Below, one piece after another: positions 40,804-54,283 of a DNA stretch of 64,000 bases. The stretch comes from an uncultured Desulfosarcina sp. (lineage in GTDB: Bacteria; Desulfobacterota; Desulfobacteria; Desulfobacterales; Desulfosarcinaceae). Both the position numbers and the translations under genes were made by a program. The notes beneath the pieces are model-generated. The model was not told the origin of the DNA and did not search any database. It saw nothing but the letters and a program-made list of their open reading frames with translations. The stretch is from assembly GCA_963674945.2 (NCBI GenBank), contig CAXXWQ010000003.1, positions 256,001-320,000 of the forward strand. The letters are read 5' to 3'. Position 1 is the first letter of the stretch; the number at the start of each line of letters is the position of its first letter.

Positions 40804-42090
40804 TTATGTTGATGCAGATTCTATTTCATTTTCGTCATTTAATAAAAAGGTTCTGTTTACATCCATGCTACTCATTATGGATTCGTCAGGCGGCACGCTG
40901 CATTTTGATTCCTTTTTCCGCAGTTTGGTCTTACTATTGCTGAAATATCTCGCAGTATAATCATGACGACATTCGATCGTATCTATGGATTCGGGCCTTC
41001 CGAAGTAAAAGCCCTGTCCCAGATCAAACCCAAGTTGCCTGCATACTTCAAATTCCTCCTCACATTCAATACCTTCTGCAAGGGCGAGTATACCAAGATC
41101 GTGAGATGCTCTGATAAATGTTTCAATCATTTGATGCAGTCGCTTTGGGGCGATGTGAATTTGGCGAATAAGAGAAATGTCGAATTTCAGATAATCTGGT
41201 GATAGATTTGAAAGTTCGACCAGCCTGGTTTGACCGACACCAAAATCGTCGAAAGCCAATGCCATATTCATCATTTCCAACGCATGACTCAACTCGGAAA
41301 GCGTATTTGCATCAGAGGCGGCCTTTTCGTCCAATTCCAGAACAATTTTATTGGATGGGGCAATATCTCTGATTCTTTCCAGCGAAGCGATAAGGCCTTT
41401 CATGTCGTATATTTCCAGCCTGTTCGTATTGACGAACAACACAGGCAATCCAGGCAAATTCTTCCCGATCTCAACACCGACTTCACGAAAAATAGAACTT
41501 AATTCCAAAACGCATCCCAAACTCTCTGCCATATCCAATAATTCAGATGGATTTGATGGCAAATCCACATCGTCAATACGTCCGAGAATTTCGTAACCGA
41601 CTTCTCTCATGTCAGAAAATCGTACGATGGGTTGAAAATGAGGGATTACGTTTCGCTCGTGAATCAACGACCGCATTTTGTCCTCTACTCCAGACAAATT
41701 ACAGATTTCTTCATTAATGGTTGAAAATACGGTATCCTGCTTTGTGTGGGGATTCGGCGCATCTATTCTTTTTGCCTTGAACTCATATTTCCCGATTGTG
41801 ACAATATCACCGGCTTCAATCATTTCAGCATGATCGATTTTTTTATTGTTGATAAATGTTCCATTGGTGCTGCCAAGATCACGAATCCATAAAAGGCCAC
41901 TGCTTATTCGAAGCTCACAGTGATATCTCGATATGCGCTTATCGAGTAGCCTGAAATTGCTGTCCTTTGCACGACCAATCACAAAAGGAACCGAATCTAT
42001 GCAGACCGGCCATTCTCTACCGATATCCGCTACAGCCTCCAAGCACCATTGGTACTTTTCATTTTCATTATGATCGTTCATTAACAACAT
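40804..42090 (-). CDS. FHA-EAL domain protein
   Basis: IGR...ISRYH...DLGSTNGTF (FHA); HFQPI, YEILGR, DDFGVG, AEGIE (EAL). Confidence 0.9.
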   Translation of the reverse strand: MLLMNDHNENEKYQWCLEAVADIGREWPVCIDSVPFVIGRAKDSNFRLLDKRISRYHCELRISSGLLWIRDLGSTNGTFINNKKIDHAEMIEAGDIVTIGKYEFKAKRIDAPNPHTKQDTVFSTINEEICNLSGVEDKMRSLIHERNVIPHFQPIVRFSDMREVGYEILGRIDDVDLPSNPSELLDMAESLGCVLELSSIFREVGVEIGKNLPGLPVLFVNTNRLEIYDMKGLIASLERIRDIAPSNKIVLELDEKAASDANTLSELSHALEMMNMALAFDDFGVGQTRLVELSNLSPDYLKFDISLIRQIHIAPKRLHQMIETFIRASHDLGILALAEGIECEEEFEVCRQLGFDLGQGFYFGRPESIDTIECRHDYTARYFSNSKTKLRKKESKCSVPPDESIMSSMDVNRTFLLNDENEIESAST

Positions 42091-42427
42091 CTTATCTCCC
42101 ATTGACAAAAGGCTATTTGAATTTGCGCCGGAATAGCCATGCAGCCGCACTAAGGGATTTCGATGGACATGATTTTATTACTTCCTCGTTACATACGAAA
42201 ATTAAATGGTTCGCCGCTCAACACGTATTTCAACCAATAATAAGCATTCTCCCAATTATCGTTTTCGGTTTTCATTAGTATTTCTTAAGTTAAAAAGTTA
42301 TCTTTTAACTTGGACGTTGTGCACAAAAATGATTGAATTTTCTTTGGGAGGTTGACCCTGCTGTGCTATACATGGCCATGGGTCGGGGATGGTTTCACAC
42401 TGGTGTTTCTCTCTATTTAAGGAATAA

Positions 42428-43596: not shown

Positions 43597-44076
43597 TCAG
43601 TAAATCATGCCCCCCACATATACACCCGCACCGACAAAAAGATCCTGATCCGGCACCCGATAAATATAGGTCAGTTTTTTGGAAGGTGTATTTTTACCGG
43701 GTTTGGGCCACATATATTCAACCCAACCATGCCCCACCTTTCGGGCAAGATTGACAAAATGCACAAACAGCGCCTTGTCCGTGGGGTCGGTGATCAACAG
43801 AACATGATCTTGTTTGGTAAGCTCTGGTTTAAACGGATGTGCCAGCATTTTACCATCCAGATTCATCAAAAATACGTAGGAATCCTTCCAGACAAAAGTG
43901 CCTTTGGGATTTGAAATCTCTTTGATGGCGGCGTCCACACCCTTTGAAATAATCATGGCCGCTGCCTCATGGCACTTGATCACACATTCATCCTTGGTGG
44001 CAGATTCACCTGCCCATCCGTTAACAGCAAAGATTCCTGCCATCAGGCAAATCGCAATGATTCTATATTTTTTCAT
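43597..44076 (-). CDS. Stand-alone periplasmic single-Cache (sCache_2) protein
   Basis: Signal peptide; YVFL...MLAHP...GWVEYMWPKPG...KKLTY...VGAGVY. Confidence 0.88.
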   Translation of the reverse strand: MKKYRIIAICLMAGIFAVNGWAGESATKDECVIKCHEAAAMIISKGVDAAIKEISNPKGTFVWKDSYVFLMNLDGKMLAHPFKPELTKQDHVLLITDPTDKALFVHFVNLARKVGHGWVEYMWPKPGKNTPSKKLTYIYRVPDQDLFVGAGVYVGGMIY

Positions 44077-44139
44077 GTCATCCTCCGTCTTTATTCATGT
44101 CGATTGTATGTTGGTGCAGGATTGAGGCACAAGAATTCC

Positions 44140-44715
44140 TCATTTTTTCGGTTTGATCCAAGGATCCCCAACGGGCAGCACATCATAACCGAAAACCTGC
44201 GCGTAGATGACATGTGCCATCATATACAGGGCGGCGGCGGCACAAAGCATCAGTTCATATCCTGCCACTTTGGTAAGCCCCGGAAAGCCGAAATGAGCCA
44301 AATCAAGAAGAATGAATCCGATCAGCAGCAAGGTGAAGGTAACAGCCATGGCACCGTGGACGCGCATGGCCGGAACCCACATGATTGCCGTATAAATGGT
44401 CCATGCGACCAAAAACCATCCAACATCCGTCGTGGAGGAATGATAGATATTGTAGTGATTCAGAATAAAAATGACACCCAATGCGATCCAAAACGCACCA
44501 TAGGAAACAAAAGCGCTGAAACCGAAATTGTTGGCACATTTGAATTCCATAAAACCAGCAATCAATTGAGCCAGTCCACCAAAAATAAATGCCATCGCGA
44601 CGATGGGACCGACACCACACCAACCAACATTGTGAAACTGGAGCAAAAAGGTGGTGATTCCAAACCCCGCCAGGCCGACAACCGCCGGATTTCCCATAGG
44701 TGTTTCGTTTCCCAT
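44140..44715 (-). CDS. satP: Acetate uptake transporter (SatP/YaaH, GPR1/FUN34 family)
   Basis: GNPAVVGLAGFG, GGLAQLIAG, YGAFW. Confidence 0.9.
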   Translation of the reverse strand: MGNETPMGNPAVVGLAGFGITTFLLQFHNVGWCGVGPIVAMAFIFGGLAQLIAGFMEFKCANNFGFSAFVSYGAFWIALGVIFILNHYNIYHSSTTDVGWFLVAWTIYTAIMWVPAMRVHGAMAVTFTLLLIGFILLDLAHFGFPGLTKVAGYELMLCAAAALYMMAHVIYAQVFGYDVLPVGDPWIKPKK

Positions 44716-45081
44716 GTTGAACTCTCCTTCCCTTGATTGGTTCATTCATTCAAATTTGTATTGTTGATCGAGACGAAAAGAATATCGATTTTTAATCAGA
44801 TCAACGCAGGAAGCGGAGTGTACGAAAAGTCGCAAAAGGCAGATTAGAGCGATGACCGATCGTGAAAATGGGTAACTGCTGCAAGTCACTTGGAATAGGA
44901 AGATTATTGATAAACTATACTCGTTTCGAGGGAATTAAGTCAAACATTATCGCGAAAACAAGCAGATGGAAATAAATGGTAAAATTCTTATAAAAAATTC
45001 CAATCCAACTGATGTAAAATGAACTGATTTTTGTAGAACAATGCCTCATTAATTGCTATACGTTTTTTCCGAGGATGATAA

Positions 45082-45842
45082 ATGAGACCGAAAACGCTTC
45101 CTGCCTTACTCCTGCTCTATTCTCTTCTTTTTCCAGGCGTGCTACTGGCAGCCAATGGCTATTTTCTCCATGGTATCGGTGCTGTGAATGAATCCATGGG
45201 AGGAGCGGCAACCGCGGGAAACCCTCAGGACCTGTTGGGTAGCCTTTACCGCAACCCGGCCAATGCAAATCTTTTTTACGGGTATTTATTCTCAATGAGT
45301 CTGGGCGTCATTATCTCGGATGCAACCGTAGAAAGTTCGTTTTCGACACTGGGAATTACCGGTTCCAGCGATTCCGATGCGGATACAATCCCAGCGGGAC
45401 ACCTGGGGATGGTCTTCAACGGTGATAACAGCCCGTTTTCCTATTATGTTGCCGTTGTCGGTGAGGCTGGTTCTTATTTGGACATTCCACAAAGCGAAAC
45501 CAATCCGATTTTCATTGCTCAGCAAGGAAAATGGGAATCCAGAAAAGTATCCACGACAGCTGGATTGTCAGGGCCGGCTACAACTACGGCAGCAATCCCA
45601 TCGGTGATGACATCACATTCTACAATGTGGGCACACCGCAGCACAACGAGCACCATTTGGCCTTGGGCGCTTCATGGATGGTTTCACGAAAAACGGCTAT
45701 CGATGTTGGCTATACCCATGCTTTTGAAAGTTCGCAATCCGGTTCATGGTATGATGCGACCGGTCAGCCCATTGGGCAGACGAACATTCACTCCTCACTG
45801 GCCTATGATCAAATTTCAGTTGGTTTCACCCATTCATTTTAG
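45082..45842 (+). pseudogene. FadL/TodX outer-membrane channel remnant with internal deletion and frameshift near 45530
   Basis: N-terminus ANGYFLHGIGAVNESMGGA...NPA in one frame; C-terminus RAGYNYGSNPI...DVGYTH...FTHSF in another; about 250 codons in total. Confidence 0.85.
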
Positions 45843-45882
45843 TATGGGTACGAGTATAAAAATATTCAAGCATGGAGGTGAC

Positions 45883-46566
45883 ATGAGAGTTATCGTCTGT
45901 TTTCTTCTTCTTACTGTGTTTTCAGCAGAAGCGATCTTTGCCGGACCGGCTGAAGAATTGGGGGAAGAGCTCAAAAAGTGCGGAACGCTAAATCCCAATA
46001 CCGTCCCCGACAACTGGGTTTCCGTTGGCGTCATGACCGGCCAGCACAAATCATGTTTTACTTATATTCCGCCCACTTTTCGCCATATCCCTTTGGGAGA
46101 GGCTTCAAATCTCTATCTTGAGGATGATTATACCAGTGCCTCAATCATCGGGGGTGTGTTACCGCCGGGATATTCATGCGATCTGAATGGTGTGATCAAT
46201 TGGTACGGCGACATTGTGTCCCAGACCGGCTGCATAAACCCGAAGCTGGAATGGTATGATGTCAATCTGTCCAGTTTTGTTTATTCCTGCACCAAGAACA
46301 ATGTCCCTCTGGTCGGCGGTGTTAAGGTTATCGTCGATGGTTCGAACGGGTTAATGTGTAGCGTGAATGTAATGGGATACGCAATGCCGCAAACCGATAT
46401 TAAAAAGACATGTCAGCTATCCCAGATTCTTAACGGTGTGAAGTGTGCTAACCCGCAATATGGTGGCAAGGTCTGTCACAAACCGATTTGCAGCAATAAC
46501 TGCAAAGCATCAGGCCATCGTGGGGGGTACTGCAATTCGTTCGAAGATTGCATCTGTGTCGAGTAA
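45883..46566 (+). CDS. Secreted Cys-rich protein with C-terminal defensin-like (CSalpha-beta) motif, 227 aa
   Basis: GGAGGTGA RBS; signal peptide MRVIVCFLLLTVFSAEAIFA; ends VCHKPICSNNCKASGHRGGYCNSFEDCICVE. Confidence 0.8.
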   Translation: MRVIVCFLLLTVFSAEAIFAGPAEELGEELKKCGTLNPNTVPDNWVSVGVMTGQHKSCFTYIPPTFRHIPLGEASNLYLEDDYTSASIIGGVLPPGYSCDLNGVINWYGDIVSQTGCINPKLEWYDVNLSSFVYSCTKNNVPLVGGVKVIVDGSNGLMCSVNVMGYAMPQTDIKKTCQLSQILNGVKCANPQYGGKVCHKPICSNNCKASGHRGGYCNSFEDCICVE

Positions 46567-46864
46567 AACGATTTCAGAGACATACACAGATCATAAGAAA
46601 ATCATCGCATCCACTATACTTCGTCTAACGTTTTTTACCAAAGTGCCGATCTTCTATAAAGCGTTGAAAAGACCGGCGGTACCAAATGGGATGAAGTAAC
46701 AACGCAATCGCGTTCAGTTACCCATTGAAGAACCACCCGGTCTCGTGTTCACCACTGCAAATGCATCGGTTTTACACACAAAGGCTGCTGCGGTGATCAC
46801 GGGTTACCAATCCAAACCGGAAGATCGACTTGGGCAACAACCATTTATTGACGCAAGGTAAACG

Positions 46865-49962: not shown

Positions 49963-51202
49963 TCATACGCCATCGCCTCCCCCCCAGGCATTTTCATATT
50001 CCCTGAATAAATCAAGGGACGCCTCCGCATCTGAAAACGCCTGGTCGTAAGTGCCCATTCCATAATGGTTCAATGCACGAGCATACAGCAGCCAAACATA
50101 TTGACTGTCGTAGACCCCTTGTCTGGCGGCCATCATCAACCCTTTTTCGGCACATTCACAGCCCTGAGAATAATCAACCAGGTAATATACGGTCAACGCC
50201 GCCTGGAAATAGGTAATCGGCAGGAAATTATCCAATTCCATTTGCACGAATGTGGTAATAACTCTTTTATTCAAGGCGTCCGCTTTACGAAAATTACCGG
50301 CTACATGAAAACGGTAGGAATGACACAATTCAAGCCATGTGCGGATAAATGTCATATCGAAATTATCCGATACGGCAAATTTTCTCACGGCTGAACCGTA
50401 ATATTCGTCGGCGCCATCCACGTCGCCCGTGATGGCGGAAAAGAGAATCAAAAATCCCGCCATTTCTAACGGAAAAAACGGGTCCTTATGAGAACGGTCC
50501 CGAATGGCATCCATCTCCTGTATTGCCCTTTCCAATTTGCCTGTGAGATAATAGTGAAAGCCGATCTCCTTACGGCAATTGGCGATTCCATCGACATCAT
50601 TCTCTTCTTCGAAAAGAGATAGCGCGATTTGAAAATCGCGTATGGCCCTTTGGATCTCCCCGCCAACGGACATCACCTTCGCCCTGATGAACAGCAGTTG
50701 GGCATTATTTTCGATCAGCGCCGGCGGCAGCGTATCGAAAATTTTCTTTAGGAAGGTGATGGGGATATCTTTGAAATCGATAAGCACCAGTCCGGCAAAC
50801 AGGCGACAAACCTCTTCGTGATGCTCACCGGCGATATAGTGACGCAATATCGCAAATTTCGGGATCGAGATGGGAAAGGAGAGACGAACGCATCATAAAA
50901 TCTTGTATTTTTATAGGTTGACGTTCGACGATATCTGTTGTGGCGCGGTACCGTGAAAGCTTAAGACCAGGTTCTTTACGACTGATGATGACCAAATGGA
51001 GGGTGTTGGGCATTCTCTCCAACAACAGCTCAATCGCGCCAGGGATCTCCGTGCTCTTGCCATATCCGGCGCCGGCAATGATCAAGGCCAGTTTTTTATG
51101 TGTGATGGCCGCAAGCTGCTCTTTCAGGCGGGTACGTTGCAGGGTGCGTGCCGTGTAAGGCTTTGTCAGTTTGGATTGCAGAATCGGACGATGGGTTTTC
51201 AT
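49963..51202 (-). pseudogene. MalT-like STAND ATPase/TPR regulator remnant with several internal deletions
   Basis: ILQSKL...GAGYGKST joined directly to post-Walker-B LHLVIISR, then IQDFMMRSSLL, then a frameshifted TPR segment; no DNA-binding domain seen. Confidence 0.8.
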
Positions 51203-52532: not shown

Positions 52533-54283
52533 CCTGAATTTTGCACGCAATTAGCTTTAATTGGCCACGGTGGCCAATTTTTTCAAAATGACGAAGAGTT
52601 CGTTTTCTACTCTAACACATGATCGTTGCCTTTAGTGTGAAGTATACGGTTTGCACGTGTTTCGTTTAACTGCCCATATACAAAGGAAATTGTCGTGAAA
52701 AAAAATTCTTGCATGATATTTTCCCGAGTTACGCAGACGTTCAACATGCCACTTGTCTCCACGGCTTCGGTTTCAATCGCGCTTGATCCAGGAAGTCGAG
52801 AAAATGGATCATCGCGGGCGTTCTCGCATCGTGTACGGAGAACTTGACCTTGTCACGGTTTTGATCTTTGACAACTTTTGCGGCAATGAAAAGCAGCTTC
52901 AACCTGGCGATCCGGATTGTATTGGATGCCACCGTTTTTAAATGCGGCATCTTTTTTCTGTCCTGGCTCATGGCGGCAAGCATCTTGATGTAACGCCAAA
53001 TGTTATACGACAGCACTACAAGTTGAAAGAACGCATAATTGTTTTTGAACTTTGCTGATGGGATGGCCTCAAGCCCTTCACGTTTGGCCTCACCCACCAG
53101 GTTTTCAACGTCAGCGCGTTTATCATACTTGCTGACCACCTCATGGGCCGGCCCTGAAAGGTTCGTGCAGAATATCCGGTATGTATAGTTGTCGTCTTCA
53201 AAGAGTAGGCATTGCACTTGCTGGTTTGAAGTTGATTTGGCTTTCGGTATACGCATGGCCACAAACCGGCACGGGGTATCCCAACCAAGGGGCTGATAGA
53301 CGCAGCTGTTATACTCAACATCCTTGCGTTTCCAGGGCCGATACCAACCTCTCGGATCAAAGGGCGGGTCGCATCTCTTGTTGGCGATGATGAAGTCATA
53401 GCCGCAGTGTCTTGCAGTCTGGACACTTTCCCAGCTCAGGAACTCTCCATCGGCCCGCAGCAGGACTTGGCGAACACAACCGGGTAAATGGGATTTTGTC
53501 TGGAGGATAAAGGCAGCGGTCTGTTTGCCACTGAGTGTTTCACCTTTTCGAAGCTTTCCGATAAGACACTCCCGGGTCTGCTCAATGAAGCACAGCACCG
53601 GACGGTAACCTTTCTTTCCCCGGTTTTTGGTGTTATGGCCTTTCCTGCCTCCTTGCTGATTGCCGTACAGCGTCTCGACGGTGGTGTCGATATCGATGCA
53701 TATCCGGTAATAATTGAAACCCAGTTGTTGCCACACCCGTTCTCGCAGAATGCTCATGAGCTTCTGAAGGGACTGGGCTTGGTTAATTCCCAAGCTGTCA
53801 AGGTATCGCCAGAAGGTGCTCGACACCGGCAACTTTGTCAGTCGGAAAAATCCACACAGCATGGCATCGAGTCGGATGTAGGTAAAATGCCAGATTCTGT
53901 TAAAGCCTATAAACAGTAGCATCAGAAGTCCTGCCACCATCGAATAGTGGCCCAGCTTTGGCTGCCGGACAGGCGCATGATAGGTGGAGTTAAATATTTG
54001 TTTGAAATCGATCAAATCGAAAAATTTGATCATCGCTAAAAGCCCGCCAAATGGACTTAGTTGCTCGCTGCATGTCTCATGCGGCGTAGAAGCGTTGATT
54101 TTTCTGGCCTTGGCAGCGTTTTTCTTAAACCCTTTGTTCTTGCGGTTTTTACGGCTTTTTGATTTACTTGATTTTACCATCTGGGTACCTCCTGTTTTTA
54201 TTGTGGAAGCATGTCACCTCCCTTTATAACAGGATTCCCAGATGGTTTCTTCCTTATTTATGATTCGTCGTGCAAAATTTAGG
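52533..54283 (-). mobile_element. IS1380-family insertion sequence, copy 2 (1751 bp)
   Basis: Same IRs as copy 1; 5-bp target duplication ATATA at 52528-52532 and 54284-54288. Confidence 0.95.
52741..54180 (-). CDS. IS1380-family transposase
   Basis: Translation identical to 280-1719. Confidence 0.93.
   Translation of the reverse strand: MVKSSKSKSRKNRKNKGFKKNAAKARKINASTPHETCSEQLSPFGGLLAMIKFFDLIDFKQIFNSTYHAPVRQPKLGHYSMVAGLLMLLFIGFNRIWHFTYIRLDAMLCGFFRLTKLPVSSTFWRYLDSLGINQAQSLQKLMSILRERVWQQLGFNYYRICIDIDTTVETLYGNQQGGRKGHNTKNRGKKGYRPVLCFIEQTRECLIGKLRKGETLSGKQTAAFILQTKSHLPGCVRQVLLRADGEFLSWESVQTARHCGYDFIIANKRCDPPFDPRGWYRPWKRKDVEYNSCVYQPLGWDTPCRFVAMRIPKAKSTSNQQVQCLLFEDDNYTYRIFCTNLSGPAHEVVSKYDKRADVENLVGEAKREGLEAIPSAKFKNNYAFFQLVVLSYNIWRYIKMLAAMSQDRKKMPHLKTVASNTIRIARLKLLFIAAKVVKDQNRDKVKFSVHDARTPAMIHFLDFLDQARLKPKPWRQVAC

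Follow-up and report, generated by a model that had tools for sequence, protein, structure and literature searches.

A CSab-type defensin module predicted to be built into a probably exported Mog1p/PsbP-like protein of Desulfosarcina

At one locus of the window analysed here (the whole stretch of 64,000 nucleotides from an uncultured Desulfosarcina sp.), an apparently exported protein ends in a six-cysteine motif like that of insect defensins, which raises the question of whether this motif is released as a peptide or serves as a domain of the larger protein. The first-pass annotation had placed the motif inside a spurious 494-aa ORF, a frame that spans 45082-46566 in the ORF list; this 494-aa mis-call is also found in a public protein record, P0033. 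Because DNA similarity to orthologues is restricted to about 45864-46569, with its onset at about 45864-45940, and because the upstream DNA consists of two out-of-frame pieces of a FadL gene, we agree that this ORF is spurious, and it can be explained as read-through from the start of the broken FadL gene. The gene itself (P0001, Table 1) has same-start full-length homologues of 227-228 aa with 77-78% identity, and two homologous loci, L001 and L002, carry purine-rich stretches at the position equivalent to its Shine-Dalgarno-like sequence. Comparison of P0001 with orthologues in two other genomes gave a dN/dS of 0.04-0.11 across the whole gene. In the module dS was saturated and dN was 0.095-0.139, and in the N-terminal domain dN was 0.079-0.104, so that by dN with these two orthologues the module is about as conserved as the protein body. 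Searches around the gene turned up neither a promoter nor a terminator above chance level, and no informative repeats on its flanks.

Table 1. Features of the P0001 locus (positions in the window)
Feature	Residues	Position	Strand	Basis or remark
Broken FadL/OmpP1-family outer-membrane transporter gene		45082..45842	+	About 160 codons missing, frame change
Shine-Dalgarno-like GGAGG		45874..45878	+	4 nt ahead of ATG 45883
227-aa gene P0001 (start ATG 45883, stop codon 46564-46566)	1-227	45883..46566	+	Signal peptide, Mog1p/PsbP-like domain, linker, CSab module; same-start homologues
Likely Sec signal peptide	1-20	45883..45942	+	Hydropathy, by inspection
Predicted Mog1p/PsbP/DcrB-like domain, 8 Cys	21-188	45943..46446	+	Predicted structure
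Family motif N39-T-V-P-x-x-W45, predicted docking site of the module	39-45	45997..46017	+	Conservation, predicted interface
Linker ANPQYGGKV	189-197	46447..46473	+	Between C188 and C198
CSab (cis-defensin-like) module	198-227 + stop	46474..46566	+	Defensin_2, model, paired Cys losses

To place the protein in a family, we assembled a working set of 63 rows (P0001-P0032, P0034-P0037 and P0039-P0065, leaving out the 494-aa record P0033 and the FadL protein P0038), in which near-duplicates are included and rows are not independent events. A word-index search with P0001 returned only three close relatives among 112 candidates, and a search with the full alignment A3 gave six matches of 8000 scored, swamped by low-complexity linkers. 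A HMMER scan of 1.84 billion representatives yielded 28 proteins at E<=0.001, mostly matched end to end, and a core-only profile confirmed 34 of 5685 candidates, 27 of them new. The resulting family is rare and comprises at least 60 larger exported proteins with the module, spanning about 25% identity. Within the taxonomic family the gene was found in 3 of 65 genomes, all in one genus; both named carrier records are Desulfosarcina, and one carrier, Desulfosarcina variabilis (WP_419660055.1), is cultured. A sample of the phylum, searched with the noisy A3 profile and at most six candidates scored per genome, showed the gene in 1 of 401 genomes, its own, and in none of the 400 others. The few other named sources are MAGs assigned to Thermodesulfobacteriota, to Oligoflexia and to unclassified Deltaproteobacteria. 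No paralogue was found in the gene's own genome and no match in a plasmid search, and a scan of one metagenome confirmed none of 35 candidates. A tree of 29 rows (seven fragments or duplicates left out) separated a 12-row clade including P0001 from a 17-row clade; for residue counts in the module we used 14 near-clade rows and 46 distant modules. A crude heuristic classed 36 N-termini as lipobox-like, each continuing into a low-complexity linker, 11 as signal-peptide-like and 16 as partial. The near-clade proteins P0008 and P0009 have extra N-terminal domains that on visual inspection resemble fibronectin III, for which Pfam gave only a sub-threshold match, in P0008. In a separate observation, the homologue on a metagenome contig at L010:775-1503 loses frame in its N-terminal part, through a frameshift or an assembly error.

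The C-terminal residues of P0001 read K196-V-C198-HKPI-C203-SNN-C207-KASGHRGGY-C217-NSFED-C223-I-C225-VE-stop, the codons of K196 and C198 beginning at 46468 and 46474. The six cysteines, CxxxC, GGYC and CxC first described here are all present (the start noted for them, 46471, is that of V197), and the suggestion that they form a CSab/cis-defensin signature gained support from several sides. Residues 196-227 passed the Pfam model Defensin_2 with 22.1 bits against a cut-off of 20.4, whereas the whole protein, at 16.5, did not. In the module, the AF2 model predicts a helix at 200-209 and antiparallel strands at 214-217 and 223-226 (pLDDT 96-98), an arrangement in no conflict with the defensin topology. 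The motif is kept across the family, with all six cysteines in 56/60 modules and four in the remaining four, and the glycine of the gamma-core GxC (G215-Y216-C217) stands in 58/60. Among solved sequences, insect defensins come nearest (best E 3.6e-4). A search of all six frames of the 7.08-Mb genome gave a single site with a strict CSab-at-stop pattern and three with a looser one, of which the two beyond P0001 are a low-complexity repeat and a frame antisense to another ORF. Defensin_2 matched 13 of 32 family members at E<=1. Matches of the distant modules to Pfam defensin models were weak, since out of 27 further members three gave a Defensin_2 match at E<=0.1 and none exceeded the cut-off. 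Tyr occupies position 216 in 9/14 near-clade rows, and Ala replaces it in 28/46 distant modules, mostly reading G-A-C; judged from these alignments, the insect-like wording GGYCN is local to the clade around P0001. On the strength of its motif, its predicted secondary structure and the paired loss of its cysteines, we assign the module to the CSab fold.

This paired loss also bears on the state of the cysteines. C207 and C225 are lost jointly in three rows of one clade and C203 and C223 jointly in one row, neither pair ever losing a single member, and C198 and C217 are never lost in any row. These two loss events in the module fit bonds 3-6 and 2-5 of a cis-defensin (1-4/2-5/3-6), with 1-4 invariant. 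In the N-terminal domain, C117 and C136 are lost jointly in 15 rows and singly in two, which supports their pairing. Joint loss of C58 and C188 in one row, and the less clear patterns of C33/C177 and C99/C159, where single losses occur, hint weakly at pairs C58-C188, C99-C159 and C33-C177. The genome has two VKOR genes, one of them fused to DsbA, making disulfide formation plausible; a DsbB gene was not found in it. The fusion was seen at G000:C3:715379-716473 (L023, L027), where a single 405-aa frame matches both VKOR and DsbA. A further DSBA-family match, at G000:C4:2034806-2035372 (L025), contains one in-frame TGA and is possibly a selenoprotein gene or a broken gene; since the genome has a SelD homologue, selenocysteine at this codon is possible. 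We also considered that the cysteines might hold a metal such as Zn instead of forming disulfides, the protein then serving for metal handling in an anaerobe's envelope. Members of the host genus are strict anaerobes, many modules are acidic, and there is a weak metallothionein match (E 0.19). Cyanobacterial PsbP is described as zinc-binding in PMC3792639. However, cysteines lost two at a time in the pairs that the disulfide pattern predicts, an even count (14) in the mature chain, and the VKOR and DsbA genes all speak for disulfides, and we regard metal binding as very improbable.

The N-terminus begins with a hydrophobic stretch (Kyte-Doolittle 2.3), and hydropathy and inspection agree with the signal peptide proposed earlier; P0001 lacks a lipobox, and we infer cleavage between A20 and G21-P22, an A-before-GP junction preserved in four full-length close copies. 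Of the Cys-rich domain of about 175 aa that was said to follow, residues 21-188 and their eight cysteines stand, but it need no longer be called unrecognised: its predicted structure is like Mog1p/PsbP/DcrB. The structural match covers most of the domain (the fold-search rows spanned only mature residues 21-169), at 2-14% identity and a Foldseek TM by query of only about 0.43, and a common fold predicted at such identity shows no function. Neither Pfam nor NCBIfam has a family covering the domain, and the Pfam PsbP/DcrB families matched none of 32 members at E<=1 and none of 27 further members at E<=0.1. Foldseek matches to abscisic-acid receptors (PYL) came from a poor first AF2 model built on five sequences (pLDDT 55.6) and were dropped, the TM being only 0.14-0.19 with the good model. 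The ESM Atlas gave no usable match to P0001; for P0012 it returned one feature match (0.90) with no family assigned, and structural neighbours among which are domains annotated as PsbP, which is a lead only. Separately, a viral structure library contained three phage lipoproteins that matched (E<=2.4e-4, TM about 0.4). No charged or Ser residue is preserved above 81% in the family, which makes an enzymatic role unlikely.

The linker contains the NPQYGGK that was noted as joining the domain to the module, and linkers are 5-9 aa long in 60/60 module-bearing rows. Across it, the model predicts that the module docks on the N-terminal domain, whose interface residues are 38-39 and 41-47, through H199-I202, S204-N205, K208 and Y216-C217, with K200, P201 and Y216 buried. 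The docking used two halves of one protein and shared its alignment with the AF2 model, so that the two are not independent. The predicted contact falls on the family motif, in which T40 is kept in 55/57, P42 in 56/57 and W45 in 56/57 rows. The module stands at the C-terminus in 60/63 rows. Among the three rows without it, one is a 112-aa fragment, and P0061 and P0063 share an identical short ending just past the linker, possibly a natural truncation or one shared mutation; as both retain TVPxxW, the domain can occur without the module.

These features could also be read as those of a structural cap, in which a small disulfide knot, perhaps convergent with defensins, stabilises the Mog1p/PsbP-like domain at its edge and binds nothing itself. 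Between the two clades the module differs almost wholly outside Cys and Gly, its conserved residues point toward the N-terminal domain in the model, and it can lose one disulfide or be dropped, as such a cap might. Solved Mog1p/PsbP proteins, however, fold without one; the three-disulfide spacing and the GxC gamma-core are kept across about 25% identity, and in the distant clade positions 199, 200, 206, 220 and 221 are repeatedly acidic, which suggests a kept surface. A mere cap is therefore unlikely in our estimation.

P0001 lies between the FadL remnant and a MinD-like ATPase gene, with YaaH also nearby. The remnant gives a Toluene_X match at 45531-45839 (E 2.5e-8), and an intact same-genus FadL ORF (P0038) matches 45145-45504 with aa 56-177 and 45531-45839 with aa 338-465, in different frames; contigs from public runs of one study, which may represent the source sample, contain the identical remnant sequence without indels. 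At L001 and L002 the gene adjoins an ABC-class ATPase, with different downstream genes and with TM2 and adenylate cyclase among the neighbours, and the genes flanking it there are elsewhere in, or not found in, the genome of P0001; L007-L010 have unrelated neighbour genes. P0001 stands alone as an accessory gene. In a relative, a low-depth contig with a similarity of about 87% runs directly from 44960 to 46618 and skips both the remnant and the gene, a weak hint (one contig, with 42 letters on its short side) of an empty site in that relative. In seven neighbourhoods (the window, L001, L002 and L007-L010, three of them contigs of <3 kb) we found no cognate toxin or partner gene and no ABC exporter/protease cluster, and no T6SS or cognate effector gene lay beside the gene at the loci examined.

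Several other features of these loci were recorded. At L002:2202-5831 a 1209-aa CARDB-containing protein is encoded between a YedF-like gene and the ABC-class ATPase, and it is not at that place in L001. On the reverse strand of the window, a YaaH-family transporter gene is paired with a single-Cache-domain gene (43597-44745), the two occurring together in at least eight same-genus genomes with different neighbours in each; an FHA + EAL domain protein (40804-42150) is encoded upstream of a CHASE8 hybrid histidine kinase; and a 479-aa transposase (DDE_Tnp_1_4) is encoded at 52741-54180. Two overlapping reverse-strand ORFs of 125 and 294 aa at 49963-51202, with sub-threshold TPR matches only, resemble pieces of a LuxR/MalT-type TPR regulator.

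Two uses of the module had been put forward at the outset, a processed antimicrobial peptide and a lipid-binding targeting module, and our results disfavour both. In the first, the N-terminal domain would be a chaperone or self-protecting pro-domain, and a protease cut at the GG linker would free an antimicrobial or signalling CSab peptide. The module alone does pass Defensin_2 and has insect defensins as its nearest solved sequences, 44/60 linkers contain GG (bacteriocins are usually cleaved at GG/GA, PMC6989792), and P0061 and P0063 show that the module is separable; a masking pro-domain would also dock, so the predicted contact fits this reading too. However, the module is not cationic, with a net charge of 0 and a pI of 6.9 in P0001, and across the family 46/60 modules are acidic (to -7), 11/60 neutral and 3/60 at +1. 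Nor is it a small stand-alone peptide, since it follows a domain of about 170 aa in P0001 and its full-length homologues. GG is absent from 9/14 near-clade linkers and a dibasic site from all 60. Double-glycine cleavage belongs to ABC exporters acting on leader peptides, whereas this family carries Sec or lipoprotein signals, and the seven neighbourhoods, three of them short, held no double-glycine exporter or protease gene. Together with the clade-restricted insect-like residues, the predicted burial of K200, P201 and Y216 and a module as conserved as the body, these observations make release of a peptide improbable.

In the second proposal, an uncleaved module would anchor the larger domain to membranes or to the cell-wall precursor. 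For related defensins of insects and bacteria, binding to lipid II or cardiolipin is described (PMC12284004), and from the match ranges Y216 and R213 likely correspond to Y29 and K26 of plectasin. R213 is present, however, in only 1/14 near-clade rows, Y216 is replaced in most distant rows and lies within the predicted intramolecular interface, and the net charge is unfavourable for anionic lipids; we consider lipid or lipid II targeting very unlikely.

Our preferred reading, to which we give a probability of roughly 0.55, is that the Mog1p/PsbP-like domain and its docked module form, as the predicted structure suggests, one disulfide-locked unit, which is likely exported and likely acts as a non-enzymatic binding head for a protein partner in the envelope and not as the source of a released peptide. 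The protein would be exported by Sec and be soluble in the case of P0001, whereas most homologues, to judge from their N-termini, would have a lipid anchor followed by a long flexible linker. Up to seven disulfides would then be oxidised, plausibly by the VKOR-DsbA fusion encoded in the genome, and the module would pack on the N39-W45 motif through the contacts predicted above. The neutral-to-acidic composite surface so formed may bind the partner. The leading candidate for a specific role, though a tentative one, is an orphan protein that might inhibit or neutralise foreign envelope-attacking enzymes; the patchy distribution of the protein and its export point this way, as do the known examples Tsi3 and TplEi. 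An adhesin or receptor comes next and seems rather doubtful. It is also possible, though we would not favour it, that the module shares true ancestry with eukaryotic and myxobacterial defensins and is a complete cis-defensin domain with three disulfides, which provides a Mog1p/PsbP-like envelope protein with a built-in subdomain for ligand binding. The cultured carrier D. variabilis makes these proposals directly testable.

Among the top-ranked papers in our searches of the open-access literature, none gave an account of this family or domain combination, and both appear undescribed. If a structure confirms the fold, the known uses of the defensin fold would widen, and a bacterial defensin motif need not mean an antibiotic. 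If the module is moreover truly homologous to defensins, this would suggest that the fold also exists inside larger bacterial proteins, which could have released free defensins or, conversely, have taken them up, and the family might represent a new class of orphan defence (enzyme-neutralising) lipoproteins. CSH, CSab and gamma-core are defined in PMC5116183, which treats the name as no guide to activity, and a defensin-derived insect peptide is described in PMC11116330 as neutralising toxins instead of killing.

Among known systems, the arthropod cis-defensins (PF01097 Defensin_2; sapecin, lucifensin, insect defensin A) share with the module the six-Cys spacing, CxxxC, GxC, CxC, a helix-strand-strand order (predicted here) and, in P0001, GGYCN. 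They are, however, free peptides of about 40 aa, whereas the module is the C-terminal part of a 227-aa protein, neutral or acidic in the family, with a very short n-loop (4 aa), and predicted to be docked. Bacterial cis-defensins, of which PMC11561630 distinguishes five classes, are exported, three-disulfide CSab proteins with a gamma-core, as is predicted for the module-bearing protein. According to that paper, many are delta-proteobacterial and a bacterial origin of cis-defensins is proposed; it reports no activity for xanthusin-1, and its main text does not contain 'Desulf'. The 74 sequences there were selected at 30-130 aa as stand-alone peptides, so that fused CSab domains would have been invisible to the screen. 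Actifensins have a GA/GG leader and ABC-transporter operons (PMC6989792; their operon, leader and lipid II binding are covered in this paper and in PMC12284004). Only 3/36 members of the P0001 family match the actifensin/actinodefensin model NF038042 (best E 0.039). Compared with Mog1p/PsbP-like proteins (PsbP, Mog1, DcrB, SciW, MTC28, LpqN, Apa and the immunity proteins Tsi3 and TplEi; DcrB, the T6SS-linked PsbP/MOG1-like adaptors and Tsi3 are treated in PMC7716261, PMC3482391 and PMC3792639), the P0001 domain has an extra N-terminal helix and four likely disulfides, at the low identity given above, and its CSab module lies outside the matched ranges of the solved chains. Unlike Tsi3/TplEi-type immunity proteins and Eag chaperones, P0001 has no T6SS or toxin genes in view nearby.
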